Below, one piece after another: positions 5,898 to 31,221 of a stretch of 64,000 bases of DNA. The first letter of the stretch is position 1; every line of letters begins with the position of its first letter. The stretch is taken from positions 2,138 to 66,137 of the forward strand of contig JBGAPZ010000019.1 in NCBI GenBank assembly GCA_044220975.1, given 5' to 3'. The position numbers and the translations under genes are program-made. Source of the stretch: Micropepsaceae bacterium. GTDB taxonomy: Bacteria > Pseudomonadota > Alphaproteobacteria > Micropepsales > Micropepsaceae. The notes under the pieces were generated by a model. That model was not told the origin of the DNA. It did not search any database and worked only from the letters and a program-made list of their open reading frames with translations.

Positions 5898-5907
5898 AAT
5901 TATAATT
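5898..5907. promoter_or_regulatory. AT-rich 10-bp perfect palindrome AATTATAATT just upstream of arsR; candidate promoter/operator
   Basis: Perfect palindrome 17 nt upstream of the arsR start, in an otherwise GC-rich genome. There is no experimental or comparative support. Confidence 0.3.
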
Positions 5908-6095
5908 GCGATTGTCAAGAGATGTGCGATCGATCTCCGAAGGAACCAGCCCGGATGAGGTGGAACTGGAGAAATCCGTCGTATCCGCATGCGAGATTGC
6001 TGAGGACGGGGCCATCGGTTGAGTAACAAAAACAGCCGCGCATTGCGGCGGGGAGGGACTATCGTTGTCGAGCAACCGTCAAATAATGGTGCTCA

Positions 6096-6645
6096 ATGGT
6101 AAGGCACGCCGAGACAGGGGAAGTAAGTAAGCCATCAGCGACCTCATCCGCGCCGACTCGACGTCGACCAAGGCGGCGGCGACGTCCCTCGCGCGAGGAG
6201 TTCACCGGCTACCTCGTTCGTGTGACGGACTGGCATTATCACTACTCCTTCCGCGCGACTGATCCCAAAAGCCCGCGCGACTGATCCCAAAAGCCGTTGG
6301 GACCCTGGGCCCTACCACGAGTTGTCTCATGTTGCGTTTAAGGGCGATATCGTCCTTCCTGAGAAGACAACGTTCACACGCGCCACGGTCACTTTCAGCG
6401 GCCGGAGCGGACTAATGACGCAGAGCCAAACGGAGAAAGATCGCTCAATTGGCTCCGTCACCGCGTCGGCAGACGAGTTGATGGCCTATGTTTTCGCGCC
6501 TATGGAAAGGATAGCGGAACTCGTAATCGCGGCGCAGTCGGGTCGCGTCCAGATCGTTCACTTCACGGCGACCCGGTTGCGCTACCGCATTGGTCTTGTC
6601 GTGAGCATTTCGATCGACACACGATTCGACGATGCAGAGTGGTGA
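6096..6645 (+). pseudogene. Hypothetical protein gene split into two ORFs (6096..6284 and 6322..6645) by a 22-bp tandem duplication
   Basis: Removing one 22-bp copy puts the two ORFs in one frame with no stop: ...FRATDPKS-RWDPGPYHELSHVAFKGD... I did not recognise any family. Confidence 0.45.
6251..6294. repeat. Perfect tandem direct duplication, 2 x 22 bp (CCGCGCGACTGATCCCAAAAGC)
   Basis: 6251-6272 and 6273-6294 are identical when read directly from the sequence. Confidence 0.95.
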
Positions 6646-6675
6646 CCTGCCGCTTGCTGGCGATGGGTGGTCGTA

Positions 6676-6844
6676 TTCCCTGTTTTGGAAATAGCTTTCC
6701 CTGCTCCGCCTGTTAGCGTTCCCTGTTCCTCTCGCAGGGAATTCGGAGATCAAACGGCGCAATCCTAAGGCGAAGCGGTGCTCTCGACCCCCAATTCCTG
6801 GACGACGAGCGCGAATTCGCTGTAAAATGGGGTGTATCAGGGAA
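6676..6844. repeat. Cluster of five TTCCCTG/CAGGGAA heptamers in a non-coding stretch
   Basis: Direct copies at 6676, 6697 and 6719 (spacing 21 and 22 bp). Inverted copies at 6735 and 6838. Copies 3 and 4 form a 7-bp stem with a 9-nt loop. Confidence 0.6.
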
Positions 6845-6942
6845 TTTGGCGAGAGAAATGCGCAGAGCTACAGTTCGTGCGCACTGCGCACTGCGCCATT
6901 CTCTCTCTTCGATCGCGGCAGTCGGCCGATCAAGCGTCAGGC

Positions 6943-7149
6943 TTACCGGAATTGTTCATCCGTGTCGTAGTTGGGCGGCGTGCGGAGCAGCACCGCCACG
7001 CTGATCGCAGCAACGATTGCTCCGAAATTCAGTGACGCCATTATGACGGTGTAAACAATGGTTTGTGGCGGCATCCCTATGATCGCAGCCGACATCGCGA
7101 AGCAAACGCAAATTGTCAGCCAGAGTGCTGCACCCGCGAACGCCACCAT
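6943..7149 (-). CDS. Small hypothetical membrane protein (two predicted TM helices)
   Basis: 68-aa hydrophobic ORF in an AT-richer region. No recognisable family, so coding status is uncertain. Confidence 0.3.
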   Translation of the reverse strand: MVAFAGAALWLTICVCFAMSAAIIGMPPQTIVYTVIMASLNFGAIVAAISVAVLLRTPPNYDTDEQFR

Positions 7150-7288
7150 GGTTTGGTCTCCAAACTCGCCCTGTGTGTGAAAACGTGCTGACCCGGGGTT
7201 TTGTTCCGGACAATTTCGCTAGGGGAACCGGGTGCTCGCGCGGGCGTTATGTGTCCGCCGGATTAAACGGCTGAAAGGCAGGCGTCTC

Positions 7289-7453
7289 ATGCTGCAATGG
7301 GCATTGATCTTCTTGGTCGTCGCTATCGTCGCCGGCGTCCTTGGATTTGGCGGTGTCGTCGTGATTTCGGTCGAAATTGCACGATTGCTGTTCTTCATCT
7401 TTTTGGTGCTGTTCTTGATTAGTTTGCTCGCAGGGGTCGTGCGGCGAACGTGA
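7289..7453 (+). CDS. UPF0391/DUF1328-family small membrane protein (YtjA-like)
   Basis: MLQWALIFLVVAIVAGVLGFGG... is the characteristic N-terminus of this family. I chose the ATG at 7289 over the ORF-track start at 7232. Confidence 0.75.
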   Translation: MLQWALIFLVVAIVAGVLGFGGVVVISVEIARLLFFIFLVLFLISLLAGVVRRT

Positions 7454-7459
7454 ATTGTC

Positions 7460-7481
7460 GCGGCGCCCGCAAGGGCGCCGC
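7460..7481 (+). terminator. GC-rich hairpin (9-bp stem, GCAA loop) directly after the DUF1328 gene
   Basis: GCGGCGCCC-gcaa-GGGCGCCGC, 7 nt after the stop codon. There is no clear U-tract. Confidence 0.45.
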
Positions 7482-7526
7482 AATCGCATGCGGACCGCAG
7501 GGGGACTGCCCGTGGCGAAGCTTACG

Positions 7527-8707
7527 ATGACAAGAACAATTCGCCTGTTCGCCACATTGGGCGATCACGATGCTGGTGTCGGCGTGTGTCACGCCAAATG
7601 ACTTCGATACAGGCGGGTCGATCCGCGCAGTGAGGGCGAGTGTCGCCGAGTTGGCGGCGCCCCAAACGGTCTATTTCGCGACAACGCGCTGTAACGACAA
7701 GTTGGATGCCGGTCCGCCGGAGTCAGCTGACGAAATGTATGAAGCGCTGCTGGGACGCCGCGGTGAAGCAGGACGAAATGGTGCGTCTAACGTTCGGCTT
7801 GTCGGAAGGACCCGGAATAACCTGCGGTACTGTCGGCGTGACCGTCGAACCGCTCTCTGCGGCGCCTGAAGCCGAGACGAAAATCGATCAAGTGCCGCTC
7901 AGCCAAGACTGCACCAACAACTTCACGATGCTGCGCAAAGCGGTTCTGGCAACGTCATGCCGCTGTGCACTGATTTTCGTGCACGGGTACAACACAACAT
8001 TCGCGTTCGCGGCCAAGCGTATGGCGCAACTTCAGGCCGATCTGAAGTATGAAGGCCAGCCCATTCTATTCAGCTTCGGCGCTGCCGGCCGTTTGGAAGA
8101 TTACATTAACGACACCGAGGCCGGCGAGCTCGCGGCTCCAGCTTTGAGCCAGCTGATGATCGCGCTTGCAAATGCCGGTGCCACGATCGACGTTATCGCT
8201 CACAGCATGGGCGTGCGGATCGCACTTCGCGCGATGAGCGACACCAATGCCCCCAAACTGCGGTACGCGATCCTCGCGGCGCCGGATGTCGATCCTGCAG
8301 CCTTCCTACGCTTGACCGAAAAGGCGCTTCCACACACGCAGCGGCTCACGATTTACACTTCGAAGTTCGACGTCGCGATGGCGGCGTCTGCGGCCTATCA
8401 CAATGGACGCTCGCGCGTGGCTGAAGGGATGACGCCCAAGATCGCCGACAAGCTCTCGGGCGCAGAAATCATCGATGCGACGCAAAGGGCTACCGGTCCC
8501 TATGCGCATTCCTATTTCGCCGAATCGAAGGTGATGATCGAAGATATTCGCGGGGTTCTCGCGGGCAGGGCCGCGCCGGAGCGTAAGCCCTTAATCTGCA
8601 ATATCGCCGGTGCCAAATCCGTTGTTGCGTGCACCATGCCGTGTCCCGAAGGCGCCAAATGCGGCCCCACCTGGTACGCTCGCTTCGTGCACTGGCTGCT
8701 CGATTGA
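7527..8707 (+). pseudogene. DUF900-like alpha/beta hydrolase lipoprotein, reading frame broken twice near the 5' end
   Basis: The core is IFVHGYNTTF...AHSMG (frame of ORF 7640..8707). The preceding conserved piece TVYFATTR lies in the frame of ORF 7570..7869. The signal-peptide n/h-region MTRTIRLFATL lies in a third frame starting at 7527. Removing one G at 7558-7560 and one A at about 7776-7778 restores MTRTIRLFATLAITMLVSAC... as one ORF. Confidence 0.6.
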
Positions 8708-11767: not shown

Positions 11768-12373
11768 TCAAGATGGTAGTGCGCCTCTGCGCAGGCCTTC
11801 GATGAATGTGTTTACGGTGAGGTCGGCGATTCGTGCAGGTTTTGCGCGGCCGGCCGGGTCGAGCCAGGTGTGCATCCAGTTGATCATGCCGAAATAGAGC
11901 ATTGTCGCCGGGCGTTTCAACGCGGGCTGGCGAGCGAGGTCTGGCCGCAGCGCGACCAAAGTTTCTTCTACGATGTCGATAAGGCGGCGCTGAATCGCGA
12001 CGATCGTTTTGCGTTGTTGGTCGCCCAGATGGCGCAACTCATTAACGAGGACGCGCTGATTGCTGGCGGCGCCGAGATAGAGTTGAATGAAGCGGCGCGT
12101 CAGCGTGCGCAGCTTTTCGTCGGGTGGGAGCTTTTTCGCTGCGATCTCTTCGGCGGCGTCGAGCAAGGCTTTCACGTGGTCGTGCATCGCGTCGAACAGG
12201 ATATCCTCTTTCGAGGCGTAGTAGTGATAGAGCAGCGACTTTGACGTACCGCAGGCTTCCGCCACTTCGCTGATCGATGTCCCGTGAAAGCCATGATCGG
12301 CAAAGAGGGCTGAGGCCTTCGCGACGATTTCGCCGCGGCGTTTCTCGTAGTTTTCAGCCTGTGTGCGCGCCAT
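11768..12373 (-). CDS. TetR/AcrR-family transcriptional regulator; candidate PaaR-type repressor
   Basis: HTH signature FADHGFHGTSISEVAEACGTSKSLLYHYYASKEDIL. I chose the ATG at 12373. It is divergent from the E1 gene, with a dyad operator between them. Confidence 0.85.
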   Translation of the reverse strand: MARTQAENYEKRRGEIVAKASALFADHGFHGTSISEVAEACGTSKSLLYHYYASKEDILFDAMHDHVKALLDAAEEIAAKKLPPDEKLRTLTRRFIQLYLGAASNQRVLVNELRHLGDQQRKTIVAIQRRLIDIVEETLVALRPDLARQPALKRPATMLYFGMINWMHTWLDPAGRAKPARIADLTVNTFIEGLRRGALPS

Positions 12374-12396: not shown

Positions 12397-12419
12397 AAAT
12401 TGACCGTCCATTCGGTTTA
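12397..12419. promoter_or_regulatory. Operator-like dyad, site 1: AAATTGACCGTCCATTCGGTTTA
   Basis: ACCG-N6-CGGT core in the 94-bp divergent TetR/E1 intergenic region. Its first 13 nt are identical to site 2. Confidence 0.55.
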
Positions 12420-12467: not shown

Positions 12468-14552
12468 ATGTCCATCGCGATGCCGAAGCGCACCGGCACA
12501 TCCGAAAACCGCGTTGACGGCGAGGTCGATTGGCGGCGCGTCGCGTGGCTGACGCATGCTTCGCGGGCGCTCGACGAACTCGAAGAAACGAAGCTCGTTC
12601 CGGAGCGGAAGATTTTCTACCAGTTTTCCGCGCGCGGGCACGACGTTGCGCAGGTGCTGCTCGGGCTACAGCTCACGAATAAGAACGATGCTATTTGCGG
12701 ATACTATCGCTCGCGACCGATTTTGCTCGCGCTCGGTGTGTCGATTGCGGATGCGCTGGGGTCGTCCATGGCGCGGGCAGGCGGATATTCCGATGGGCGC
12801 GATATCGGCGCTGTTTTCAACTATCCCAACAGCAATGGCCCGTCGGCGCTGCCGATGTGCGGTGGCGTCGGCGCGCAGTACACGCCGACCGCGGGTTGGG
12901 CGCAGGCCCTTGAGTACCGGCGCTCGGTGTTGAACGATCGCGCGTGCGACGGTGCGATTGCAGTCGCGCTCGGCGGCGACGGATCTGTGGCGACGAACGG
13001 GTTTTGGGCGTCGCTCAATATGGCGTCGGTGTTGCGGTTGCCGATGCTGTTCTACATCGAAGACAATGGCTACGGCATTTCGGTGCCGGGCTCGTTGCAG
13101 ACGCCAGGCGGCGACATCGCGGCGAACTTGAAGGCCTTCAAACAGCTTTCGGTGATTGCGGGTGACGGAACGGATCCTGCCGAAACAGGTGCTCTGATCA
13201 AGGATGCGGTGCGCCAGGTGCGCGAGCGTCGTGGACCTGCGTTGCTTCGGTTGACGGTCCCGCGGCTTGAGGGACATTCGTTTCAAGACACGCAGACATA
13301 TAAGTCCGCGGACACGATCGCGGCCGAGAAGGCGCGTGATCCGCTGCCGAAGTTGCGTGAGCATCTGGTGCCGGCGGTGATCGACGCCGCCGAATGGGAT
13401 CGCATCGCCGCCGATGCGAGGGGCGCGGTCGAAGGTGCGCGCCGCGAGGCGGAGGCGCGGCCGGTCGCCGATCTGGCGCGGACAGCGCGGCATGTGTTCT
13501 GCGAGGGCGAGATGCAGGCGATGGGCGGGCAGGCGACGCACGGTTACGTTTCGCCGCGCACAACGCCCACGGCGCAGGGCGAGGGTCAGCGCATCAATAT
13601 GGTGACGGCGATCCGGCGAACGCTGGAGCAGGAACTCAGCATCAATCCGCGCGTGGTCGTGTTCGGCGAAGACGTGGGCCCGAAGGGCGGCGTGCATGCG
13701 GTGACGTTGGGCTTACAGGAGAAGTTCGGCCTCGCACGCGTATTCGACACGTCGCTCTCCGAAGAGGGGATCATCGGGCGTGCGGTCGGGATGTCGCTCG
13801 CCGGGCTCATGCCTGTGCCGGAGATTCAATTCCGCAAATACGCCGATCCTGCGACGGAGCAGATCAACGACTGCGGGACGATGCGCTGGCGGACGAACAA
13901 CAGGTTCGCGGCGCCCATGGTCGTTCGCATGCCGATCGGGTTCTTCAAATGCGGCGATCCCTGGCACAGTCAGACGAACGAGGTGCAATACGTACATGCG
14001 CCGGGCTGGAAGGTGGCCGTACCGTCGAATGCGGAAGACGCTGTTGGGTTGTTGCGCACGGCGCTCAGGGGCAACGATCCGGTGATGTTCTTCGAGCACC
14101 GCGCCATGCTCGATGCGCCGAGCGCGCGCAAGCCTTATCCCGGTGACGATTTCGCATTGCCGTTCGGCGAAGCGCGCGTAACACGCGAGGGTAATGACCT
14201 CACGATCGTCACTTGGGGTGCGATGGTAGAGCGTTGCGAGGAAGCGGCTGAGGGGCAGTCGGTCGAGATTATCGATTTGCGCACGTTGGCGCCTTGGGAC
14301 CGCGATGCGGTCGTCGCGTCGGTGAAGCGCACGCGACGCTGCCTGATCGTGCATGAGGATTTGATCACGGCGGGGTTTGGGGCGGAGATTGCTGCAGTCG
14401 TCGCGGAGAGCGCTTTCCTCGACCTCGATGCGCCGATCTCTCGCCTTGCGATGCCCGACATACCAAGCCCCCATAATCCCGCGCTGATGGAATGGGCGCT
14501 GCCATCGGTGGACGGCATTCGTACGAAGATCGAAGCGCTGGTGGGCTTCTGA
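12468..14552 (+). CDS. 2-oxoacid dehydrogenase E1 component, fused alpha+beta subunits (TPP-dependent)
   Basis: 694-aa protein. The N-terminal half is E1-alpha-like and the C-terminal half is E1-beta/transketolase-like (VVFGEDVGPKGGV...). The stop overlaps the E2 start. Confidence 0.85.
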   Translation: MSIAMPKRTGTSENRVDGEVDWRRVAWLTHASRALDELEETKLVPERKIFYQFSARGHDVAQVLLGLQLTNKNDAICGYYRSRPILLALGVSIADALGSSMARAGGYSDGRDIGAVFNYPNSNGPSALPMCGGVGAQYTPTAGWAQALEYRRSVLNDRACDGAIAVALGGDGSVATNGFWASLNMASVLRLPMLFYIEDNGYGISVPGSLQTPGGDIAANLKAFKQLSVIAGDGTDPAETGALIKDAVRQVRERRGPALLRLTVPRLEGHSFQDTQTYKSADTIAAEKARDPLPKLREHLVPAVIDAAEWDRIAADARGAVEGARREAEARPVADLARTARHVFCEGEMQAMGGQATHGYVSPRTTPTAQGEGQRINMVTAIRRTLEQELSINPRVVVFGEDVGPKGGVHAVTLGLQEKFGLARVFDTSLSEEGIIGRAVGMSLAGLMPVPEIQFRKYADPATEQINDCGTMRWRTNNRFAAPMVVRMPIGFFKCGDPWHSQTNEVQYVHAPGWKVAVPSNAEDAVGLLRTALRGNDPVMFFEHRAMLDAPSARKPYPGDDFALPFGEARVTREGNDLTIVTWGAMVERCEEAAEGQSVEIIDLRTLAPWDRDAVVASVKRTRRCLIVHEDLITAGFGAEIAAVVAESAFLDLDAPISRLAMPDIPSPHNPALMEWALPSVDGIRTKIEALVGF

Positions 14553-15703
14553 TGGCCGACATCATTGTTCCTGCCGAGCAGGAAGGCACGACGGCGGTCG
14601 TGAAGAATTGGCTGAAGAAAGTTGGCGAGACGGTGCGCATCAACGATCCGCTGGTCGAGATCGAGACCGATAAGGTCGCAGTCGAAATCGCGGCGACGGC
14701 GGACGGGGTTCTGTCGGAGATCCTGCTCGACGAGGGCGCCGAAGTGGAGCCTGGCACGGTGCTCGGGCGCATTGCGAGCGGTGTCGGCGTTCAAGAAACC
14801 AAATCCGCGCCCAAGTCCGCGACGCGAAGTGCTGCGGTCCAGCCACGTTCCGCGGGCGATCAGTTGCCGCCAGGCGTTCGGCGAATGCTTGCCGAGCATA
14901 GCCTTGAGGCGGGCGACGTTCCGGTCAGCGGCGATCGCCTGACGCGCGAAGACATTCAGGCATTCGTCGATGCGCGCGCGAAAGCTGCGCCGGGACCGGC
15001 CCCGCACGGTGTCACGCGGATGCCGCACGATTCCATGCGCAAGCGGATTGCCGAACATCTTTCGCAATCCGTGCGTACCGCCCCGCATGTGACCGCCGTG
15101 TTCGAAGCGGATTTCTCGGCCATCATTGCGCACAGGAACGCACACAAATCCGCGTTCGAAAAGACGGGCGCCAATTTGACGTTCACGGCGTATTTTGTTG
15201 TGGCGTGCGTGGCGGCGATGAAGGTGGCGCCTGCCGTGAACGGGCGATGGTTCGACGACCGCATCGAGATCGCGGACGACATCAATATCGGTATCGGGAC
15301 CGCGCTGGGCGAGAAGGGGTTGATCGTTCCGGTTATTCACAAAGCGCAAGCGTTGTCGCTGCTCGAGGTTGCAAAGCAGCTGAGCGATCTGACCGAACGC
15401 GCGCGGTCGGGAAAGCTTTCGCCAGCGGACGTGCGCGACGGGACATTTTCGATCTCGAACCACGGCGTTTCCGGCTCGCTTGTTGCGTCGCCCATCATCA
15501 TCAACCAACCGCAGTCCGCGATCTTAGGTGTGGGTAAGCTTCAGAAGCGCGTGGTGGTGCGCGAAGCCGGCGGAGTTGATAAGATAGAAATCCGCCCAAT
15601 GGCCTATGTGTCGCTCACGATCGATCATCGCGTGATCGATGCGTTTCAAACGAACGCGTGGTTGACGCGGTTCGTCGAGATGCTGGAGACATGGGCGGAC
15701 TAG
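14552..15703 (+). CDS. Dihydrolipoamide acyltransferase (E2) with lipoyl, E3-binding and catalytic domains
   Basis: Lipoyl motif EIETDKV, a peripheral-subunit-binding segment (PPGVRRMLAEHSL), and catalytic DHRVIDA. Confidence 0.9.
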   Translation: MADIIVPAEQEGTTAVVKNWLKKVGETVRINDPLVEIETDKVAVEIAATADGVLSEILLDEGAEVEPGTVLGRIASGVGVQETKSAPKSATRSAAVQPRSAGDQLPPGVRRMLAEHSLEAGDVPVSGDRLTREDIQAFVDARAKAAPGPAPHGVTRMPHDSMRKRIAEHLSQSVRTAPHVTAVFEADFSAIIAHRNAHKSAFEKTGANLTFTAYFVVACVAAMKVAPAVNGRWFDDRIEIADDINIGIGTALGEKGLIVPVIHKAQALSLLEVAKQLSDLTERARSGKLSPADVRDGTFSISNHGVSGSLVASPIIINQPQSAILGVGKLQKRVVVREAGGVDKIEIRPMAYVSLTIDHRVIDAFQTNAWLTRFVEMLETWAD

Positions 15704-15714
15704 GAGCAAGACGA

Positions 15715-16929
15715 ATGGCACAGCCACACATTCAAGCCGTGACGCCCTCGCTGTTCGGCGCGTTGAAGACGCAGCCGCAGGACCCTTTGCTGGCACTGAT
15801 GGCGGAGTTCCGAAACGACCCGCGCGAGGGGAAGATCGACCTCGGCGTCGGGATGTATCGCGATGCGACCGGCATCACGCCGGTCATGCGAGCCGTGAAG
15901 GCGGCCGAGCGTATCTTGCTCGAGACGCAAACGACCAAAGGCTACATGGGGACGGAAGGCGATTTTGTGTTCGTCGATTTGCTGAAGCCGATCGTCTTCG
16001 GCGAGGCGGTTGCGAAAAGCGATCGGATCGTGGGGCTGCAAACGCCTGGCGGTACGGGCGCGTTGCGCCTTGGGGCTGAGTTGATTGCGGCGGTCAGGCC
16101 GCGCGCGAAGGTGTGGCTCGGCGAGCCGACCTGGCCGAACCATCGGCCGCTTCTCAATGCGGCGCGGCTTGCGGTCGAAGGGTTCAAGCATTTCGACAAG
16201 GCGGCGCAAACGCTGCCTTTCGACGAGACGGTGGGGGCACTCAATCGCGCGGAGCCAGGCGACATCGTCGTTCTGCAAGCGTGTTGTCACAACCCAACGG
16301 GCGCCGACTACAGCATTGAGCAGTGGCGTGTCATTGCGGAGATGTTTGCGAAGCGGGGTCTCGTGCCTTTTTTCGACTTTGCCTACCAAGGCCTCGGCGA
16401 TGGGTTGGATGCGGATGCCAAAGGCATGCGCCTCGTCCTTGACCACGTGGATGAGGCGCTGATCGGTTATGCGAGCGACAAGAATTTCGGCGTCTATCGC
16501 GAGCGCGTCGGCGCGTTGTTCGTGATGGCTAACAATGGACGCGCTGCGAGTGCCGCGTACACGCAGGCGCAGGCGCTCGCGCGCGCGAACTGGTCGATGC
16601 CGTCGGATCACGGCGCCGCGGTGGTGCGGCTGGTGCTGCAATCGGCGGAACTTACGCGGGATTGGAAAGCAGAGCTCGACGGCATGCGAGCGCGCATTCT
16701 GAGCAACCGCGCCCGGCTTGCGGCGCTCAATCCTCGGCTCAGTGCGGTCGAGCAACAGCGCGGCATGTTCAGCCAAATTCAGATCGCGCCGGAGGCGGTG
16801 GCCCGTCTAAAAGACGAACATGCGGTCTACATTGTGGGCTCGGGCCGAATGAATGTCGCCGGCTTCCGCGACGATGGCGAGGTCGTTCGGTTCGCCAAAG
16901 CGCTAGCTTCAGTGAACGGCGACGGCTAA
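15715..16929 (+). CDS. Class I aromatic/aspartate aminotransferase (TyrB/AspC-like)
   Basis: FRNDPREGKIDLGVGMYRD and ...SKNFGVYRERVG (PLP-Lys region). RBS AGGAG lies before the ATG at 15715. Confidence 0.9.
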   Translation: MAQPHIQAVTPSLFGALKTQPQDPLLALMAEFRNDPREGKIDLGVGMYRDATGITPVMRAVKAAERILLETQTTKGYMGTEGDFVFVDLLKPIVFGEAVAKSDRIVGLQTPGGTGALRLGAELIAAVRPRAKVWLGEPTWPNHRPLLNAARLAVEGFKHFDKAAQTLPFDETVGALNRAEPGDIVVLQACCHNPTGADYSIEQWRVIAEMFAKRGLVPFFDFAYQGLGDGLDADAKGMRLVLDHVDEALIGYASDKNFGVYRERVGALFVMANNGRAASAAYTQAQALARANWSMPSDHGAAVVRLVLQSAELTRDWKAELDGMRARILSNRARLAALNPRLSAVEQQRGMFSQIQIAPEAVARLKDEHAVYIVGSGRMNVAGFRDDGEVVRFAKALASVNGDG

Positions 16930-18147
16930 CGACGCAAAGCCGCGAAAGCGGGCGCGGCGATTGCGTTTCGGCTGCTCGGTCAGTTCGTAGTTTGGGAAGC
17001 GCTTCATCCACTTGCCGAGAGCGATGCGGCCTTCCATGCGCGCGAGGTTCATGCCGGCACATTGGTGCGGGCCGGCCGCGAACGCCAAATGACGGTTTGG
17101 GGTTCGTGCAATGTCGAAGCGTTCGGCATCGGCGAATTCGTCTGGGTCGCGGTTTGCCGCGCCGATGCCGAGCGTGACGAACGTGCCCGGTTCAATCGCG
17201 AACCCGGCGATATCGGTTGCGCGCGTCGTGACGCGGTTGCCGAGCTGGTTCGAGCTTTCGTAGCGCAGCACTTCTTCGATCGCCGAACGGAGCAGCGTTT
17301 CGTTTGTGAGAAGACGCGCGCGCTCATCGCGGACGCGGTCGAACAGTTCGATCGCGTTGCCGATGAGGTTCGTGGTCGTTTCGTGGCCGGCATTCAGGAG
17401 GAAGACGCAGTTCTCAGCGAGTTCGGGACCGGAGAGCGGCTCGCCTTCGCTTTGGAGCAGCCGGGTTAAGACGTCATGGTCGGGGTCGCCCGGATGCTTG
17501 CGGCGTTCTTCGATTAGGATGTCGAGGTAGGCGTGGAAGTCGGTCAACGCTTGTTCGCCGCGCGCGAAGGCTTCGCGCGCGAGGACAGGTTCTAAAGCGC
17601 CCAGGATCGCGAGCGACCAGTCGCGCAGCGGCGCGCGATCGGCCATCGGGATTGCGAGCAGGTCGCCGATCACTTCGATGGGAATCGCGCCTGCGAAGTC
17701 CGCTATCGCATCGATTGCACGCTTGGCGGCCGCTTCGTCGAGTAGGCGGTCGACGAGGCGTTCAAGCTTCGGCTCGAGGGGCGCCAACGCTTTCGGTACG
17801 AGCGCACCCATGATCGAGCGCCGTACACGCGGGTGATACGGCGCGTCATTGAAGACGAGGCTCGTTGTGTGGTGACGAAACAGGCGTGAGTTGGTGCCGA
17901 ATTTCGGACCGAACTCAGCTTTCTTGTCGGAGGAGAACGTCGCCGTGTCCTGATAGACGGCGAGCACGTCGGCGTAGCGGCTTAGGAAGACGGCGCCATC
18001 AGGCAGGCGCATTACCGGATCGTGCTTGCGTAGCGCGCGGTAGGTTGGGAAGGGGTCGTCGTAGAAGCTGTCGGGCAATTTCTTCAGGTCGAAGATGCGG
18101 GCGAGATCGGCGTCGCTCATCCAAGGCGGCTTTCGATCCAATCCCAA
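16909..18147 (-). CDS. Cytochrome P450
   Basis: Heme-binding loop FAAGPHQCAGMNLAR, an EVLRY (ExxR) motif and an AGHETT I-helix. Confidence 0.9.
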   Translation of the reverse strand: MGLDRKPPWMSDADLARIFDLKKLPDSFYDDPFPTYRALRKHDPVMRLPDGAVFLSRYADVLAVYQDTATFSSDKKAEFGPKFGTNSRLFRHHTTSLVFNDAPYHPRVRRSIMGALVPKALAPLEPKLERLVDRLLDEAAAKRAIDAIADFAGAIPIEVIGDLLAIPMADRAPLRDWSLAILGALEPVLAREAFARGEQALTDFHAYLDILIEERRKHPGDPDHDVLTRLLQSEGEPLSGPELAENCVFLLNAGHETTTNLIGNAIELFDRVRDERARLLTNETLLRSAIEEVLRYESSNQLGNRVTTRATDIAGFAIEPGTFVTLGIGAANRDPDEFADAERFDIARTPNRHLAFAAGPHQCAGMNLARMEGRIALGKWMKRFPNYELTEQPKRNRRARFRGFASLAVAVH

Positions 18148-18869
18148 ACGGCCGCGGGCCTCTCGACCATCGCGTTGTGACCAGCGTCCGCAATTGTGAC
18201 CGCGTTGGTGTCGAAAGCACGCAGCTGGTCTTGTGTGACCATCGGGTCGGTTTCGCCGCGTGCCAGATGCGCGGGCGCACGAGCGGTGTCGATGAGCGCA
18301 CGCATCGGCGGTGCGCCGACGGTCATCGTTCGCGGATCATAGGCTAGGCGCCACCCATCGCTTTCCTGCACGACACCGGCGGCAGCGGCGGGTGAGTTCT
18401 TGCCGATCAATCCTGAGAGCCCTGCCACCTTCAGGTAGCGATCGACGGCTTCGTCCTTTGTGGTGAAGCGGCGCGCCGGGGCTGCGGCGAGGCCTTGCAT
18501 GCGGGTGAGTTCTTCGTCGCTCCACGCAACCTTGATGCCTAGGCCGAAGGCGCGCGATGGCGCGGCGCCGAAGGTGCCCGACGCCAACGCTAAGGCCACC
18601 GCACCGCCCATGGAGTGTCCGGCGACGATGATCTCGCGCCATGGGCCGTGGGATTGGATGAGCGCTGCCACGTCCGCGGCGTGATCGGCGAGCGCGTACG
18701 TCTCGCTGTGCGGAGACGCACCGTGGCCGCGTAAGTCGGGCGCTATCCAGCTGCCGCGCCAACGGCCGGTGTCCTGCATCGGCTGCCAAACGTGACGCGT
18801 GGCGCCCAAGCCGTGCAGCAGCACGATCAGCCTATCGCCAGTACCGCCACGGTCGGACGCGAGCCGCAT
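18117..18869 (-). CDS. Alpha/beta-fold hydrolase
   Basis: HGLG oxyanion region and GHSMGG nucleophile elbow. Its 3' end overlaps the P450 start by 31 nt, and it follows paaZ with no gap. Confidence 0.8.
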   Translation of the reverse strand: MRLASDRGGTGDRLIVLLHGLGATRHVWQPMQDTGRWRGSWIAPDLRGHGASPHSETYALADHAADVAALIQSHGPWREIIVAGHSMGGAVALALASGTFGAAPSRAFGLGIKVAWSDEELTRMQGLAAAPARRFTTKDEAVDRYLKVAGLSGLIGKNSPAAAAGVVQESDGWRLAYDPRTMTVGAPPMRALIDTARAPAHLARGETDPMVTQDQLRAFDTNAVTIADAGHNAMVERPAAVWDWIESRLG

Positions 18870-20888
18870 TCAAAGCGCGTTCATCGTCAGGAGTTCGTAG
18901 CTCGCGACCGGTTCTTCGTTCTGGTTCGTGAGCAGCACGGCCCAACGCACTTCGCCGTATTTGTCGGTGCGCGATGTCTTTTGCTTCACGGTGAGGTTCA
19001 CCTTGATGGTTTCGCCCGGCTTTACCGGCTTGATGAAGCGCAGGTTGTCGAGACCGTAATTCGCGAGCACGGGGCCCGGATCGGGATCGACGAACAAGCC
19101 GGCAGCGAACGAAAGCAAGAGATAGCCGTGCGCGACGCGGCCGCCGAACAGCGGGTTCGCGGCGGCGGCCTTCTCGTCCATGTGGGCGTAGAACGTGTCG
19201 CCCGTGAAGTGGGCAAAATGTTCGACATCTTCGAGCGTGATCGTGCGCGGTTTGGTGACGAGCGTGCGGCCGAGTTCCAATTCGCCGAAACGCAAGCGGA
19301 ACGGGTGCACGCTTTCGCGTTGCTCCGGCGCGCCAGGGAGCCAGTTGCTGGTGACCGCACTGATCGTTCGCGGCGACGCTTGAATCGCGGTGCGCTGCAT
19401 GTAGTGCATGACGCCTCGCAGGCCGCCCATTTCCTCGCCACCACCGGCGCGGCCCGGGCCGCCGTGAATGAGCGAGGGAAGCGGGGAGCCGTGTCCGGTC
19501 GATTCTTTCGCGCAGTCGCGGTCGATAACGACGAGACGGCCGTGGAACGAGGCTGCGCCGTCGATGACTTCGCGCACGACCTTTGGATCATGCGTGTAAA
19601 GCGACATCACGAGTGAGCCTTTGCCGCGATTGACGATGCTGACCGCTTCGGCGAGGCCGGTGTAGGGCATCAACGTGGCAACGGGGCCGAACGGTTCGAC
19701 GTCGTGAACCTTGGTCGCTGACAGAGGTTTGTCACAACGAAGCAGAGTTGGACCGATGAAACCGCCGTGGATAGGACTGGCGCCGTGTAGTTCGACCGGC
19801 TTCCCTCTTACGAGGCGCGCCTCCTCGTAGAGAATGTCAAGCTTCTGCAAAACATCTTCACGCTGTGCCAGGCTAATAAGCGGCCCCATTGTCACGCCTT
19901 CTTGGCGCGGATCGCCGACGACAACTTCGGCAAGCTGTTTCGTGAGTGCCAACTCTGCCGCGTCGACAACGTTCGCGGGGACAATGGCACGACGGATGGC
20001 GGTGCATTTCTGCCCCGCCTTCACCGTCATCTCGCGAACGACTTCTTTCACGAACAGGTCGAATTCGGGCGTGTCGGGTGCGGCATCGGGCCCGAGGACT
20101 GCCGCGTTCAGCGAGTCGCGTTCGGCGACGAAGCGCACGCTTTCACGCGCGATGCCAGGATGGCGTTGCAGCTTCTCCGCCGTCTCGGCCGAGCCTGTGA
20201 ACGAGACGACGTCTTGGCCTGTGAGATGGTCGAACAAATCCCCGATGGGACCGAGGAGGAGTTGAATCGCTCCTTTCGGGAGTACGTTCGCTTCAATGAG
20301 TACGCGGAATGCTGCTTCCGTGAGTTGGGCGCTGGCGGATGCCGGCTTGACGATTGCTGGAACGCCGGCGAGCAGCGTTGGTGCCAGTTTTTCCAGCATG
20401 CCCCATACAGGGAAATTGAAAGCGTTGATGTGAACGGCGGCGCCTTTCAGCGACGTCATCACGTGCTGGCCGATGAACGTGCCCTTTTTCGACAGGCCTT
20501 CGACCGCGCCGTCGGTCAGGATCGTGTCGTTTGGCAGCTCGCGGCGGCCTTTCGAGGCGTAAGCGAACAGCGTCCCCGCGCCGCCTTCGATGTCGATCCA
20601 GCCGTCGCTCTTCGTTGCGCCAGTGTCGTAGGAGAGCGCGTAGAGTTCGTCTTTGCGCGTCATGATGGCGTCGCCCAGCGCCTTCAGCATCTTGCCGCGG
20701 TCATGGAACGTGAGCTTGCGAAGGGCGGGGCCGCCTTCGTTTCGGGCGTGCGCGAGGATTGCAGCGAAGTCGCGAACTGTTTCGCCGAGTTGCGCAACCG
20801 GCTCACCGGTAATGGCGGACCGGATCGGCGTCATTGTCCCGCGCGGGGCGATCCAGGCATCCTGCGCGTAAGCTTGAAGCGCTTTCAT
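18870..20888 (-). CDS. paaZ: Bifunctional PaaZ (aldehyde dehydrogenase + MaoC-like hydratase; oxepin-CoA hydrolase/semialdehyde dehydrogenase)
   Basis: 672-aa protein with an N-terminal ALDH domain and a C-terminal hot-dog domain (FTGDTFYAHMD...GGRVAHG). Confidence 0.9.
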   Translation of the reverse strand: MKALQAYAQDAWIAPRGTMTPIRSAITGEPVAQLGETVRDFAAILAHARNEGGPALRKLTFHDRGKMLKALGDAIMTRKDELYALSYDTGATKSDGWIDIEGGAGTLFAYASKGRRELPNDTILTDGAVEGLSKKGTFIGQHVMTSLKGAAVHINAFNFPVWGMLEKLAPTLLAGVPAIVKPASASAQLTEAAFRVLIEANVLPKGAIQLLLGPIGDLFDHLTGQDVVSFTGSAETAEKLQRHPGIARESVRFVAERDSLNAAVLGPDAAPDTPEFDLFVKEVVREMTVKAGQKCTAIRRAIVPANVVDAAELALTKQLAEVVVGDPRQEGVTMGPLISLAQREDVLQKLDILYEEARLVRGKPVELHGASPIHGGFIGPTLLRCDKPLSATKVHDVEPFGPVATLMPYTGLAEAVSIVNRGKGSLVMSLYTHDPKVVREVIDGAASFHGRLVVIDRDCAKESTGHGSPLPSLIHGGPGRAGGGEEMGGLRGVMHYMQRTAIQASPRTISAVTSNWLPGAPEQRESVHPFRLRFGELELGRTLVTKPRTITLEDVEHFAHFTGDTFYAHMDEKAAAANPLFGGRVAHGYLLLSFAAGLFVDPDPGPVLANYGLDNLRFIKPVKPGETIKVNLTVKQKTSRTDKYGEVRWAVLLTNQNEEPVASYELLTMNAL

Positions 20889-20897
20889 AAAGGCCTC

Positions 20898-21689
20898 CTA
20901 GCGGCCAGTGAAGTTCGGCGTTCGCTTTTCGCCAAAGGCGGCGACGCCCTCTTTGTAGTCGTGACTGCGGCCGAGATCGCGCTGCAGATCGCGCTCGAGA
21001 TCGAGTTGCGCGTCGAGCGATTGCGACCAACTCTTGCGGATCGCGAGTTTCGTGGCACCGAGGCCTTTCGTCGGACCGTTGGCCAAGCGCTCGACCAACT
21101 TCGTCGCTTCGGTCTGCAGATCCACGTCGTCGACGGCGCGCCAGATCAAGCCCCACGCTTCGGCCTTCTCGGCGCTCAGTGGTTCGCCGGTCAGGGCGAG
21201 CGCCATGGCGCGCGGTTGGCCGGCGAGGCGCGGCAATATCCACGTGCCGCCGGAGTCGGGCACGAGACCGATGTTCGCGAACGCTTGGATGAAGCGGGCG
21301 CTCCTTGCAGCGAGAACGATGTCGGCGGCGAAGGCGATGTTCGCGCCGGCGCCTGCGGCGACACCGTTGACCGCACACACGACGGGCTTTGGCAATGCAA
21401 CGAGGCGGCGGACGAGCGGGTTGTAGCGGTTCTCGAGCGACTCGCCGAGGTCGACGCCAGCGGCTCCCGGTGCGACGGCGCGATCGGACAAATCTTGGCC
21501 GGCGCAAAATCCGCGACCCGCACCCGTGATCAGCAACGCGCGGATGTCGGGATTGCGCTCGACGGCGGTCAGCGCCTCAGCGATCTCGGCATGCATTTGC
21601 ACATTGAAACTGTTCAACCGGTCAGGGCGGTTCAGCGTCAAACGCGCCGCGTTGTTGGTCAGATCAAACAGGATGGTTTCGTAAGACAT
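20898..21689 (-). CDS. paaG: Crotonase-family PaaG-like 1,2-epoxyphenylacetyl-CoA isomerase
   Basis: LTLNRPDRLNSF...GAGRGFCAGQDL, in paa context. Confidence 0.8.
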   Translation of the reverse strand: MSYETILFDLTNNAARLTLNRPDRLNSFNVQMHAEIAEALTAVERNPDIRALLITGAGRGFCAGQDLSDRAVAPGAAGVDLGESLENRYNPLVRRLVALPKPVVCAVNGVAAGAGANIAFAADIVLAARSARFIQAFANIGLVPDSGGTWILPRLAGQPRAMALALTGEPLSAEKAEAWGLIWRAVDDVDLQTEATKLVERLANGPTKGLGATKLAIRKSWSQSLDAQLDLERDLQRDLGRSHDYKEGVAAFGEKRTPNFTGR

Positions 21690-21750
21690 GCCGCCACCTC
21701 CCAGGGGTGTCGCGGGTTGGCCCCGCGCTCTTGTGTGCTACGCTTTAGGG

Positions 21751-21773
21751 TAGAACGCGCGGACGGTCAATTT
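21751..21773. promoter_or_regulatory. Operator-like dyad, site 2 (minus-strand reading AAATTGACCGTCCGCGCGTTCTA)
   Basis: It lies in the divergent paaG/paaI intergenic region and shares a 13-nt identity with site 1. Confidence 0.5.
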
Positions 21774-21786
21774 CAGGACGGATCAC

Positions 21787-22221
21787 ATGTCGAACGCTTC
21801 GGATGCGCTCGCGCGCCGGGTTGCAGACCATATGCTCGCTCAAGAAGGAACCGGGCGTCATTGGGGGATTTCGATCGAAGAGGCACGCGAAGGTTATGCG
21901 CGGATTTCGATGGTGGTCCGCGCGGACATGCTCAACGGACATCGCATCGCGCATGGCGGCATGATCTTCGCCCTGGCGGATACGGCGTTCGCCTATGCGT
22001 GCAACTCGCGCAACGTCTCGACGGTTGCCCAGCAGGCATCCATATTGTTCATGGCCCCTGCTCTGGAAGGCGCACGATTGATCGCCGAAGCGCGGGAAGA
22101 AGCTGTCGCTGGACGTTCGGGTGCGTACGTGGTGACAGTGCGCACGACGGAGGGCGAAAACATCGCGGTGTTTCAAGGGCTTTCGCGCTCGCTTGGCGGC
22201 GCAATGCTCCCCGGCAATTAA
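21787..22221 (+). CDS. paaI: PaaI-type hot-dog thioesterase (hydroxyphenylacetyl-CoA thioesterase)
   Basis: NGHRIAHGGMIFALADTAFAYA motif, in paa context. Confidence 0.8.
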   Translation: MSNASDALARRVADHMLAQEGTGRHWGISIEEAREGYARISMVVRADMLNGHRIAHGGMIFALADTAFAYACNSRNVSTVAQQASILFMAPALEGARLIAEAREEAVAGRSGAYVVTVRTTEGENIAVFQGLSRSLGGAMLPGN

Positions 22222-22241
22222 TTGACCGATCGGTCGGCTTA
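22219..22241. promoter_or_regulatory. Operator-like dyad, site 3: TAATTGACCGATCGGTCGGCTTA
   Basis: It overlaps the paaI stop and lies about 40 nt upstream of paaA. It contains the perfect 12-bp palindrome GACCGATCGGTC (22224-22235). Confidence 0.55.
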
Positions 22242-22283
22242 TTCTACATTTCACTTGATGTTCGTTGAGGAAATCGCGCGGTC

Positions 22284-23282
22284 ATGTACACCACCGAACT
22301 GAAGGACAAGAACCAGAAATCGGCGCCCGTCACGACCGTGGCGGAGGATCCGGTGAAGCTTGCCGCGTTCGAAGCGCGGGTGGCGGCGGATGATTTCATC
22401 GAGCCCAAAGATTGGATGCCTGAGGCCTATCGCAAAACGCTGGTGCGGCAGATTTCGCAGCACGCGCACTCAGAGATCGTGGGCATGTTGCCTGAAGGCA
22501 ATTGGATCACGCGCGCGCCGAGTTTGCGGCGCAAGGCCGTGTTGCTCGCCAAGGTGCAAGATGAGGGTGGGCATGGGCTCTATCTCTACGCTGCGGCCGA
22601 GACGCTGGGCACGAGCCGCGACGAGATGATCGAAGCACTGCATTCGGGCCGCGCGAAGTATTCTACGATCTTCAACTATCCGACGTTGACCTGGGCGGAC
22701 ATCGGCGCGATCGGCTGGCTGGTCGACGGCGCCGCGATTTTGAACCAAGTGCCGCTGCAGCGGACGTCGTACGGCCCGTACGCGCGCGCGATGGTGCGGA
22801 TTTGCAAGGAAGAGAGTTTCCATCAGCGCCAAGGCTACGAGATCATGATGGTGCTGGCCGGCGGTTCGCTGGAGCAGAAGCGTCTGGCGCAGAACGCGCT
22901 CGATCGTTGGTGGTGGCCGTCGCTCATGATGTTCGGGCCGCCGGACGAGAACTCGCCGAACACGGCGCAATCCGTGCGGTGGCGAATCAAGCGCGAGACG
23001 AACGACGAACTACGGCAGAAATTCGTCGACGTGACAGTGCCGCAAGCTGAGGCAATCGGGCTCACCATTCCCGATCCGAGGCTCAAGTGGAACGAGGCGC
23101 GGGGATCTTACGATTTCGGCGAAATTGACTGGGACGAGTTCTATGCGGTCGTGCGCGGCGAAGGACAGGTCGCAAAGGAGCGCATGAAGGCACGCGTCGA
23201 AGCGTGGGAGAGCGGCGCGTGGGTGCGAGAGGCCGCGAACGCCCATGCAGCGAAGCGTACGCGTCGCGCAGCGGCGGAGTGA
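22284..23282 (+). CDS. paaA: Phenylacetyl-CoA 1,2-epoxidase catalytic subunit PaaA
   Basis: Di-iron ferritin-like oxygenase sequence (HAHSEIVG...EESFH) at the head of the paaABCDE order. Confidence 0.9.
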
Positions 23283-23287
23283 TCGTC

Positions 23288-23572
23288 ATGTCCAAGGAAT
23301 GGCCCCTTTGGGAAGTGTTCGTGCGGGCGAAGAACGGGCTCGCACACAGGCACGTGGGCAGCGTACACGCCGCCGACGAGCGTATGGCGATCGAAGCTGC
23401 GCGCGACACCTATACACGGCGGATGGAGGGCGTGAGTCTTTGGGTCGTACGGTCGGCTGATATCATCGCTTCCGATCCGGGTGAGGGCGCTGCGTTGTTC
23501 GACCCGGCGGCGGACAAGGTTTATCGCCATCCGACGTTTTATTCGATCCCCGAGAACGTAAAGAACATCTGA
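23288..23572 (+). CDS. paaB: Phenylacetyl-CoA epoxidase subunit PaaB
   Basis: EWPLWEVFVRAKNGLAHRHVGSVHA is typical of PaaB. I chose the ATG at 23288. Confidence 0.9.
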   Translation: MSKEWPLWEVFVRAKNGLAHRHVGSVHAADERMAIEAARDTYTRRMEGVSLWVVRSADIIASDPGEGAALFDPAADKVYRHPTFYSIPENVKNI

Positions 23573-24318
23573 TGGCCGAAGCCGTTCACGAATATGCGGT
23601 GCGCCTCGGCGACGACAGTCTGATTTTAGGCCAGCGGCTTTCCGAGTGGTGTGGCCATGCGCCGATGCTTGAGGTCGATCTTTCGCTGGCCAACATCGCG
23701 CTCGATCTTGTCGGGCAAGCAACGCTGTTCCTGAAGCTTGGCGGTGAAGGGCGGGGTATCGACGCGGATAAACTCGCGTTTCATCGCGACGTGCTCGACT
23801 TCAAGAACTGCCTCTTGGTCGAGCAGCCAAACGGCGACTTTGCGCAGACGATTGCGCGGCAATTCTTGTTTTCGAACTGGCAGGAGCTTTTGTTCCGGGA
23901 ACTTGTGCGCTCGAACCATGAGACGATCGCGGCGATTGCGGCCAAGGCGGTGAAAGAGGTCGCCTATCACGCGCGATTTGCGAACGAGTGGATTGTGCGG
24001 CTCGGCGACGGCACAGCGGAAAGCCGGGAGCGCATCGTCAATGGGCTCGAGTGGGTTTGGCGATTTGGCGACGAGTTGTTCGAGGTGGATAGTGTCGTCG
24101 AACCTCTGATCGCCTCAGGCGTTGCAGCCGATGTGCGCAGCCTGCGCCCAGAATGGGATGCGCGGATCGCCCGGACTTTGGCCGAAGCGACGCTGGAGCT
24201 ACCGAAACCCCGGCGCGCGGCTCTGGGCGGACGGATAGGGCATCACTCCGAGCACCTTGGCCATATTCTGTCCGCGATGCAGTTTCTGCCGCGGGCCTAC
24301 CCGGGTGCCCAGTGGTGA
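23572..24318 (+). CDS. paaC: Phenylacetyl-CoA epoxidase subunit PaaC
   Basis: 248-aa ferritin-like subunit between paaB and paaD. Confidence 0.85.
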   Translation: MAEAVHEYAVRLGDDSLILGQRLSEWCGHAPMLEVDLSLANIALDLVGQATLFLKLGGEGRGIDADKLAFHRDVLDFKNCLLVEQPNGDFAQTIARQFLFSNWQELLFRELVRSNHETIAAIAAKAVKEVAYHARFANEWIVRLGDGTAESRERIVNGLEWVWRFGDELFEVDSVVEPLIASGVAADVRSLRPEWDARIARTLAEATLELPKPRRAALGGRIGHHSEHLGHILSAMQFLPRAYPGAQW

Positions 24319-24794: not shown

Positions 24795-24798
24795 GCCG

Positions 24799-30329: not shown

Positions 30330-30334
30330 GACGC

Positions 30335-31126: not shown

Positions 31127-31221
31127 GGGCGAATTCCTTTGCGGAACGAGAGCTTCCTTCGGGCGGCGTTGACAGGTCAAGCGCCCGGGCTCAGGTTTGC
31201 CCCGACACGAAGGACCTCGCG

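Follow-up and report, generated by a model that had tools for sequence, protein, structure and literature searches.

The step that leads from phenylalanine to phenylacetyl-CoA (CoA, coenzyme A) is less settled than any other part of the aerobic phenylacetate (paa) pathway, and the known routes use either three enzymes and ATP or oxygen-sensitive ferredoxin enzymes. In the usual route, phenylpyruvate decarboxylase and phenylacetaldehyde dehydrogenase act upstream of PaaK, a phenylacetate-CoA ligase. The indolepyruvate and phenylpyruvate:ferredoxin oxidoreductases (IOR and PPFOR) convert an arylpyruvate and CoA to arylacetyl-CoA and CO2. Here we describe a three-gene operon at positions 12468-16929 (+) of a 64,000-nucleotide stretch from a Micropepsaceae bacterium (contig JBGAPZ010000019.1, assembly GCA_044220975.1), which is referred to below as the window. 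The tightly packed genes encode a fused alpha/beta E1 and a lipoyl E2 of the 2-oxoacid dehydrogenase type and an aromatic-type aminotransferase; from its sequence, the operon is probably an amino acid-to-acyl-CoA module dedicated to phenylalanine, which would make phenylacetyl-CoA for the paa pathway encoded beside it.

A related reaction has been proposed in secondary metabolism. In Streptomyces pristinaespiralis, a role in L-phenylglycine biosynthesis was proposed for PglB and PglC, which resemble the E1 alpha and beta subunits of pyruvate dehydrogenase (PDH): they would turn phenylpyruvate into phenylacetyl-CoA, and the aminotransferase PglE of the same pathway yields phenylpyruvate from Phe (PMC7089894). 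In the full-text literature, with most subscription journals outside its coverage, no catabolic phenylpyruvate dehydrogenase complex was described and the PglB/PglC proposal was the sole precedent, which fits the view of an initial annotation of this DNA that a dehydrogenase-complex route is not a textbook one. The term 'phenylpyruvate dehydrogenase' reportedly occurs in a pristinamycin/phenylglycine paper. The GapMind carbon-source paper and its supplements make no mention of phenylpyruvate.

The operon, its neighbourhoods and its candidate operators

The window has a guanine-plus-cytosine (GC) content of ~62%, and its closest relatives are Rhizomicrobium-like Alphaproteobacteria. The operon, the divergent regulator gene and three operator-like sites are as follows.

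11768-12373 (-): TetR-family regulator of 201 residues, divergent from the E1 gene; Pfam TetR_N and TetR_C_24
12400-12417 (+): operator-like site 1, TTGACCGTCCATTCGGTT, an ACCG-N6-CGGT dyad in the 94-bp intergenic region between the TetR and E1 genes
12468-14552 (+): fused E1 alpha/beta (E1ab), 694 residues; Pfam E1_dh, Transket_pyr and Transketolase_C in a single chain
14552-15703 (+): E2 dihydrolipoyl acyltransferase, 383 residues; lipoyl domain, shortened peripheral-subunit-binding segment and catalytic domain
15715-16929 (+): class I (subfamily I-alpha) aromatic-type aminotransferase, 404 residues, last gene of the operon; NCBIfam PRK09257
21753-21770 (-): operator-like site 2, TTGACCGTCCGCGCGTTC, in the region between paaG and paaI; pattern match at 21755 (-)
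22222-22239 (+): operator-like site 3, TTGACCGATCGGTCGGCT, in the paaI/paaA intergenic region, upstream of paaA

The open reading frames (ORFs) of three of these genes were listed longer than the proteins they are likely to encode. The E2 ORF was listed from 14492, but translation most likely initiates at the ATG at 14552; this ATG overlaps the stop codon of E1 (TGATG) and gives a protein beginning MADIIVP. The aminotransferase ORF was listed from 15658, with its likely start at the ATG at 15715, which sits 11 nt past the E2 stop codon and is preceded by GGAG; its 3' end overlaps a convergent cytochrome P450 gene. The TetR ORF was listed to 12499 and its likely start, as read from the sequence, is the ATG at 12373, the median length of this TetR family being ~200 residues (26 loci). 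The fused E1, lipoyl E2 and aromatic-type aminotransferase first read here were all recovered, while the E3-binding domain that had been ascribed to the E2 was not detected by Pfam.

The product of 12468-14552 is predicted to be a thiamine diphosphate (TPP)-dependent 2-oxoacid decarboxylase/dehydrogenase component with its alpha and beta parts fused. The translation and alignments contained the TPP/Mg motif GGDGS...EDNGYGIS, the GHS loop (LEGHSF) and the beta-domain WHSQ, so that a TPP-binding alpha domain and a transketolase-like beta domain with the catalytic His, as in heteromeric (alpha/beta) E1 enzymes, were both present. E1ab was placed by comparing scores against PDB, NCBIfam and a search of representative sequences, and the comparison covered PDH and the branched-chain 2-oxoacid dehydrogenase (BCKDH). 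The protein fell below every NCBIfam PDH cutoff, namely those of the alpha models TIGR03181 and TIGR03182 and the beta models PRK09212 and PRK11892 (128 vs 411, 116 vs 394, 231 vs 321 and 224 vs 454 bits). The beta domain, which scored 231 bits on the PDH E1-beta model, was equally similar to the PDH and BCKDH beta subunits of solved structures (~230-267 bits). Among solved structures, the alpha domain was most similar to the Thermus branched-chain E1 alpha subunit (103 bits, ~30% identity) and reached ~57 bits or less with all others, including 50-56 bits with the Pseudomonas putida and human BCKDH alpha subunits. By these scores E1ab is not a close relative of the characterised BkdA1/A2 or BCKDHA/B proteins, and the tight clustering with characterised complexes that had been named beforehand as evidence against a phenylpyruvate enzyme was seen neither for PDH nor for BCKDH.

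A search of 1.84 billion representative sequences revealed that the identity of full-length fused E1 relatives falls to 57, 50 and 47% and then to 41% or less. We examined four of these distant proteins (57, 50, 41 and 39% identity) and found no E2, Lpd or paa neighbours; the 50% relative belonged to one Chloroflexota and the 39% relative to one Longimicrobiales. These lone fused E1 loci, with 39-57% identity, were L082 (a Chloroflexota metagenome-assembled genome), L084, L085 (Longimicrobiales-like) and L086. Because the more distant fused E1 proteins stand alone and identity drops quickly, the clade with at least 70% identity to E1ab and an E2 of its own appears to be a distinct orthologous group. 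In public annotation its members carry the labels 'pyruvate dehydrogenase', '2-oxoisovalerate dehydrogenase E1' or 'transketolase C-terminal domain-containing protein'.

The E2 matched Pfam Biotin_lipoyl with 58.6 bits and 2-oxoacid_dh with 219 bits, and both the lipoyl-lysine motif (ETDKV) and the DHRxxD acyltransferase core (TIDHRVIDA) were read in its sequence. Pfam E3_binding gave no match in this protein even at E <= 1. Alignment of the orthologous E2 proteins revealed a canonical subunit-binding segment, SPAVRR...GTGRGGRITR.D, and the corresponding segment of the window E2, PPGVRRMLAEH...VSG--DRLTREDIQAFV, was recognisable by alignment with a 2-residue loop deletion. This deletion in the GTGxxGR loop (residues ~105-140) was found only in the Rhizomicrobium group (the window, L004 and L008), and the segment was canonical in the other orders.

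As the initial annotation had noted, the operon has no E3 gene and the only dihydrolipoyl dehydrogenase gene of the window is frameshifted:

62392-63802 (-): lpd (dihydrolipoyl dehydrogenase), in two frames with a 1-nt insertion

The apparent frameshift comes from one surplus C within CTTCCTGAAG, close to 63485-63495. This lpd is preceded by the 3' end of another E2 gene (...SFDHRVVDGYDAAMFIQRVKALLEHP..., 63803-64000, at the window edge), and because it follows that gene it belongs to a different 2-oxoacid dehydrogenase complex or operon. In six related loci, from Shinella, Martelella, Mesorhizobium and Daeguia, an Lpd gene (TIGR01350, 530 bits, cutoff 409) lies directly 3' of the E2 gene, and this order shows that the E1ab-E2 pair should act as a classical, full E1-E2-E3 complex.

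The aminotransferase scored 470 bits on the NCBIfam model PRK09257, 'aromatic amino acid transaminase' (cutoff 377). Its best PDB match was the Paracoccus denitrificans aromatic aminotransferase pdAroAT (1AY4, 345 bits), with Escherichia coli AspC slightly behind (326 bits). The motifs DKNFG, GRMNVAG and LARANWS were read in the sequence, and the pyridoxal phosphate-binding lysine and the arginine for the substrate carboxylate were in place. In related loci, its gene lies 5' of E1ab in sphingomonads and 3' of E1ab in Caulobacterales and in the window lineage.

To compare neighbourhoods, one genome per species was scanned, which revealed at least 577 stretches encoding E1 relatives, and the best 80 loci (71-96% identity) were taken with up to 10 kb on either side; 44 of them have full 10-kb flanks. 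Neighbours were counted by tblastn with the window proteins and by clustering of all neighbouring ORFs. The E2 gene adjoined E1ab in 78 of the 80 loci and an aminotransferase homologue flanked the pair in 34, while a TetR homologue was present in 28. Among the 44 full-flank loci, 28 had at least one paa gene within 10 kb, 24 had at least three, and 35 had paa genes or an aminotransferase homologue. The linkage to paa genes was found in Rhizomicrobium, Sphingobium, Sphingomonas, Terricaulis, Hyphomonadaceae and Caulobacteraceae, and additionally in Sinorhizobium saheli, Ensifer, Rhizobium lusitanum and Pseudoroseomonas, and thus spans several alphaproteobacterial orders. Since the neighbourhoods cover 20 kb of multi-megabase genomes and the linkage recurs in 28 of 44 loci from several orders, it is beyond chance.

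The families that recurred across the 80 neighbourhoods were the paa genes, the aromatic-type aminotransferase, Lrp and TetR regulators, PaaK, PaaI, 3-oxoadipyl-CoA thiolase and Lpd. Neither an acyl-CoA dehydrogenase family nor any other family of branched-chain catabolism recurred in this set, and box, hpa and iaa catabolic genes did not recur either. Outside the paa clusters, a Marinobacter unit consists of an SNF-family transporter, an aminotransferase, Lrp, E1ab and E2 and looks like an amino-acid catabolic unit, and the S. meliloti pSymB unit consists of Lrp, E1ab and E2 alone. One locus, L003, comes from a record labelled 'uncultured Flavobacteriaceae bacterium'; it has the gene order of the window with 76-90% protein identity, which fits a Rhizomicrobium-like alphaproteobacterium, and its taxonomic label is probably a binning error.

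The initial annotation had reported paaK, paaF, paaH and paaJ as absent from the 64 kb. For paaK this held, as the window contained no ORF with an AMP-ligase P-loop and no tblastn match to a relative's PaaK; likewise, no match to the paaJ thiolase was found in the window. A 3-hydroxyacyl-CoA dehydrogenase (paaH) was not found in a scan of ~40 ORFs of the window with Pfam or NCBIfam models, and for paaF a possible stand-in lies at 30335-31180. Since the window also yielded no paaH and no paaJ, both of which the pathway requires regardless, the absence of paaK from 64 kb says little about the genome. In many Rhizomicrobium-like relatives, among them L006, L008, L011, L018, L021, L023 and L029, paaK lies between the hydrolase gene that follows the P450 gene and paaZ, and the PaaK of these relatives scored 633 bits on TIGR02155, just below the cutoff of 646.3. 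This slot is empty in the window, L003 and L004, and L027 has both paaK and the aminotransferase. In total, paaK was found within 10 kb in 16 of the 80 loci; among loci with at least five paa genes, it was present within that distance in 14 and not in 16, so that about half of the paa clusters bearing E1ab lack a paaK within 10 kb, which is suggestive only. The survey thus upheld the expected linkage of E1ab-E2, in part with the aminotransferase, to paa genes, and gave no consistent absence of paaK; as a correlate of the operon, that absence is not conserved, since Rhizomicrobium-like relatives carry paaK in the same cluster.

A common sequence motif also connects the operon with the paa genes. 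Sites 1 and 3 overlap -35-like TTGACC hexamers, the one at site 3 belonging to a promoter-like site upstream of paaA. The pattern TTGACCG-N6-CGK had three matches in 64 kb (0.74 expected), all in the three promoter regions of the cluster; it was derived from these three sites themselves, and the real test is therefore its conservation in relatives. Eleven related loci of the TetR type carry the core TGACCG-N6-CGGT upstream of E1ab, and many loci, among them some of sphingomonads, Caulobacterales and Rhizobium, carry it upstream of paaA, so that the operator-like dyad first noticed at the operon and the paa promoters was borne out both by the three sites and by the relatives. The dyads were located by eye and by pattern search; an automated repeat search of the window did not report these imperfect dyads. 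A looser pattern, GACCG-N6-CGGT with one mismatch, was rejected as unspecific (62 matches vs ~32 expected). The ACCG-N6-CGGT dyad presumably resembles the published operator of the TetR-type regulator PaaR.

Because the operator motif is common to both, the operon appears in this lineage to be a member of the paa regulon. The adjacent TetR repressor most likely binds the putative operators, and is probably an acyl-CoA-sensing protein like PaaR, PfmR or FadR, for which phenylacetyl-CoA is the probable inducer. Its TetR_C_24 domain is that of the FadR-like group of TetR regulators. Its best PDB match was 3ccy, an uncharacterised protein, and it scored 62 bits with 3vpr, which we take to be Thermus PfmR, a regulator of phenylacetate and fatty-acid metabolism. 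Other lineages have an Lrp/AsnC regulator in this divergent position upstream of E1ab, and 44 of the 80 loci carry one.

Proposed reaction and alternatives

From the gene content, domain integrity and packing of the operon, its conserved synteny and the common motif, we propose the following sequence of reactions. The aminotransferase would turn L-phenylalanine into phenylpyruvate, which E1ab would decarboxylate on thiamine diphosphate while reductively phenylacetylating the lipoyl-lysine of E2. The E2 core would then pass the phenylacetyl group to CoA, and a dihydrolipoyl dehydrogenase with its gene elsewhere, probably one that also serves other complexes, would reoxidise the lipoamide with NAD+. 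The resulting phenylacetyl-CoA would enter the pathway encoded by the adjoining genes, namely epoxidation by PaaABCDE followed by PaaG and PaaZ. The thioester would thus be made without free phenylacetate, sparing the ATP-to-AMP cost of PaaK and gaining one NADH. The TetR repressor, acting on ACCG-N6-CGGT operators, would control both the operon and the paa operons and would be released by phenylacetyl-CoA. Substrate and product, as well as the E3 partner and the ligand of the regulator, are inferred from family chemistry and genomic context.

A phenylpyruvate dehydrogenase feeding the paa pathway was the central proposal of the initial annotation; synteny across orders, the common operator and the separate E1 clade favour it and make it the best-supported reading. 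The argument from paaK holds in part only. Coexistence with PaaK fits two parallel entries, with Phe arriving via the complex and free phenylacetate via PaaK, and does not fit a simple replacement of PaaK by the complex. On this genomic evidence, chances are about even that the clade as a whole, fused E1ab with its dedicated E2, forms genuine phenylpyruvate dehydrogenase complexes through which Phe would mainly enter the pathway aerobically in many Alphaproteobacteria and some Gammaproteobacteria, and which would take the paaK slot in about half of the clusters and be induced with the phenylacetyl-CoA regulon.

Several observations weigh against this assignment. Of the solved E1 alpha subunits, the one closest to E1ab belongs to a branched-chain enzyme, and public labels read '2-oxoisovalerate dehydrogenase E1' or 'pyruvate dehydrogenase'. 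The operon comes without an E3 gene, the sole lpd of the window is frameshifted, and in the Rhizomicrobium lineage E2 has a shortened subunit-binding segment. The aminotransferase subfamily includes aspartate aminotransferases, with AspC scoring nearly as high as the aromatic enzyme. Of the 44 full-flank loci, 9 lack both paa genes and the aminotransferase, as does the S. meliloti pSymB unit, and the 16 loci with paaK in the same cluster argue that the complex is no simple replacement for it. An Lrp/AsnC gene lies upstream in 44 of the 80 loci, as it does at the P. putida bkd operon. Finally, the full-text literature yielded no biochemical or genetic data on any member of the clade.

Some of these observations would be expected of a broad-specificity complex of the branched-chain type whose substrates are the 2-oxoacids derived from Leu, Ile, Val and Met, perhaps with that of Phe, and for which the adjacency to paa genes would be one of several uses or a matter of shared amino-acid regulation. 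Such a complex agrees with the Thermus E1 as best solved relative of the alpha domain, with the JGI/KEGG-style label '2-oxoisovalerate dehydrogenase E1 component', with the divergent Lrp/AsnC regulator and with the several loci without nearby paa genes. We nevertheless regard it as unlikely: no characterised BCKDH alpha subunit exceeds ~30% identity, no branched-chain catabolic family recurs in the 80 neighbourhoods, and the operon and the paa promoters have their operator motif in common. S. meliloti, moreover, presumably has a separate, canonical bkd operon.

The same operator, together with a paa linkage in 28 of 44 full-flank loci from several orders that cannot be chance, makes it very improbable that the operon encodes an ordinary pyruvate or acetoin dehydrogenase paralogue placed near paa genes by accident. 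Some GenBank records do say 'pyruvate dehydrogenase', and the beta domain reaches 231 bits on the PDH E1-beta model, but the PDH models remain far under their cutoffs (231 vs 321, 224 vs 454 and 128 vs 411). A different aromatic 2-oxoacid, such as 4-hydroxyphenylpyruvate, indole-3-pyruvate or phenylglyoxylate, could also be converted to an aryl-acyl-CoA, possibly with the P450 and the hydrolase. This subfamily of aminotransferases takes Tyr, Trp and Phe as substrates, and the nearest relative of the window enzyme is pdAroAT; the P450 and alpha/beta hydrolase genes are conserved between the E2 and paa genes in the Rhizomicrobium group, and PaaI-type thioesterases, by the name of their NCBIfam model, handle hydroxyphenylacetyl-CoA. 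However, the neighbours conserved across orders are the genes of phenylacetyl-CoA epoxidase, the substrate of which is phenylacetyl-CoA, the P450 and hydrolase are restricted to one lineage, and box, hpa and iaa genes are not among the recurrent neighbours, so that we find another aromatic substrate quite improbable.

Within the known 2-oxoacid dehydrogenase complexes, a phenylpyruvate dehydrogenase would be new in its pathway role and probably in its substrate. If the assignment is true, a single NAD+-linked step would fill gaps in pathway reconstruction in hundreds of alphaproteobacterial genomes, and the 'pyruvate dehydrogenase', '2-oxoisovalerate dehydrogenase' or generic labels in the at least 577 matching stretches would be corrected. 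The lipoamide-dependent 2-oxoacid dehydrogenase family would gain a new substrate class, and metabolic engineering an ATP-free route to phenylacetyl-CoA. The family is widespread, and its carriers include the cultured and genetically tractable Sinorhizobium meliloti, Sphingobium and Marinobacter.

The paa cluster and other genes of the window

The genes that follow the operon are listed below.

16909-18147 (-): cytochrome P450, by family match; same position in Rhizomicrobium-like relatives
18117-18869 (-): alpha/beta-fold hydrolase, conserved beside the P450 gene and here directly followed by paaZ
18870-20888 (-): paaZ, bifunctional oxepin-CoA hydrolase/aldehyde dehydrogenase; TIGR02278, 996 bits, cutoff 563
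20898-21689 (-): paaG, epoxyphenylacetyl-CoA isomerase; TIGR02280, 405 bits, cutoff 345
21787-22221 (+): paaI thioesterase; 72% identity to the PaaI of L008, Pfam 4HBT
22284-25878 (+): paaABCDE, phenylacetyl-CoA 1,2-epoxidase genes, by family matches and tblastn

The upper pathway genes read initially, paaABCDE, paaG, paaZ and paaI, were all present. We identified paaZ, paaG, paaA, paaC, paaD and paaE from family matches, and paaI and paaB mainly by tblastn to related loci. PaaA scored 522 bits on TIGR02156 and PaaC 286 bits, PaaD was recognised by its zinc ribbon, and PaaE reached 414.5 bits, just below the NCBIfam cutoff of 420.8. The PaaI of L008 scored 139 bits on TIGR02286 (cutoff 119). 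An ORF at 21745-22254 (-) was rejected as a gene and is an antisense shadow of paaI.

The P450 and hydrolase genes (16909-18869) lie between the E2/aminotransferase genes and the paa genes and have no obvious role in the paa pathway. This pair is kept in L003, L004, L006, L008, L011, L018, L021, L023, L027 and L029. Directly after paaE, a BadI/MenB-like crotonase is encoded at 25900-26691 (+), which scored 434 bits on the 2-ketocyclohexanecarboxyl-CoA hydrolase model (cutoff 468). In the related loci that extend that far, tblastn found no counterpart of this ring-cleaving type of crotonase gene after paaE. A further member of the crotonase family, an enoyl-CoA hydratase ORF at 30335-31180 (-), lies ~4.5 kb from paaE and scored below all equivalog cutoffs; it runs into the 5' part of the HAD-hydrolase ORF listed at 29619-30692. 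This generic enoyl-CoA hydratase could be a stand-in for paaF.

Elsewhere in the window, a DnaE2-type error-prone polymerase (1160 residues) is encoded near an ImuA-like gene (47294-48277), and the region at 42512-48277 (-) resembles a mutagenesis cassette of the imuA-imuB-dnaE2 type. Between the dnaE2-type and ImuA-like genes, the GC content is the highest in the window. The region at 5900-8600 has a lower GC content (0.58) and contains few ORFs with the codon bias of the remaining window.

Comparison with known systems

The branched-chain complex, as represented by bkdR-bkdA1A2B-lpdV of P. putida and the Thermus thermophilus E1 (PDB 1UM9), is generally similar to the system in the window. 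Both have an alpha/beta-type TPP-dependent E1, and in both the E2 combines a single lipoyl domain with a catalytic core and a subunit-binding segment, the last being recognisable in the window by alignment, in shortened form. E3 is shared or encoded downstream, and for the window it would probably be shared. The divergent Lrp-family regulator is found in most orthologous loci outside the Rhizomicrobium group, and the logic of a transaminase followed by oxidative decarboxylation to an acyl-CoA would be the same. In contrast, the window E1 has its alpha and beta parts in one chain of 694 residues, with an alpha part of ~30% identity. Additionally, its neighbours are paa genes and an aromatic-type aminotransferase instead of branched-chain catabolic genes, and the window lineage probably uses a TetR-type operator common to the paa promoters.

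The reaction proposed for PglB/PglC, compared here by description and not by sequence, is identical to the one suggested for E1ab and is itself a proposal. In both cases the E1 is encoded with an aminotransferase that makes, or would make, phenylpyruvate and with consumers of phenylacetyl-CoA, which here are paaABCDE, paaG and paaZ and are conserved in relatives. PglB/PglC differ in serving secondary metabolism, with phenylglycine as an antibiotic precursor, and in being two separate subunits from an operon without an E2.

PaaK and the proposed complex would both supply phenylacetyl-CoA to PaaABCDE, and they occur in the same clusters and probably in the same regulon. The ligase activates free phenylacetate with ATP, whereas the complex would carry out an NAD+-dependent oxidative decarboxylation of the 2-oxoacid. 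The net chemistry is that of IOR and PPFOR, which are iron-sulfur, ferredoxin-dependent and mostly anaerobic enzymes of an unrelated family, while the complex described here would be of the lipoamide- and NAD+-dependent type suited to aerobes.

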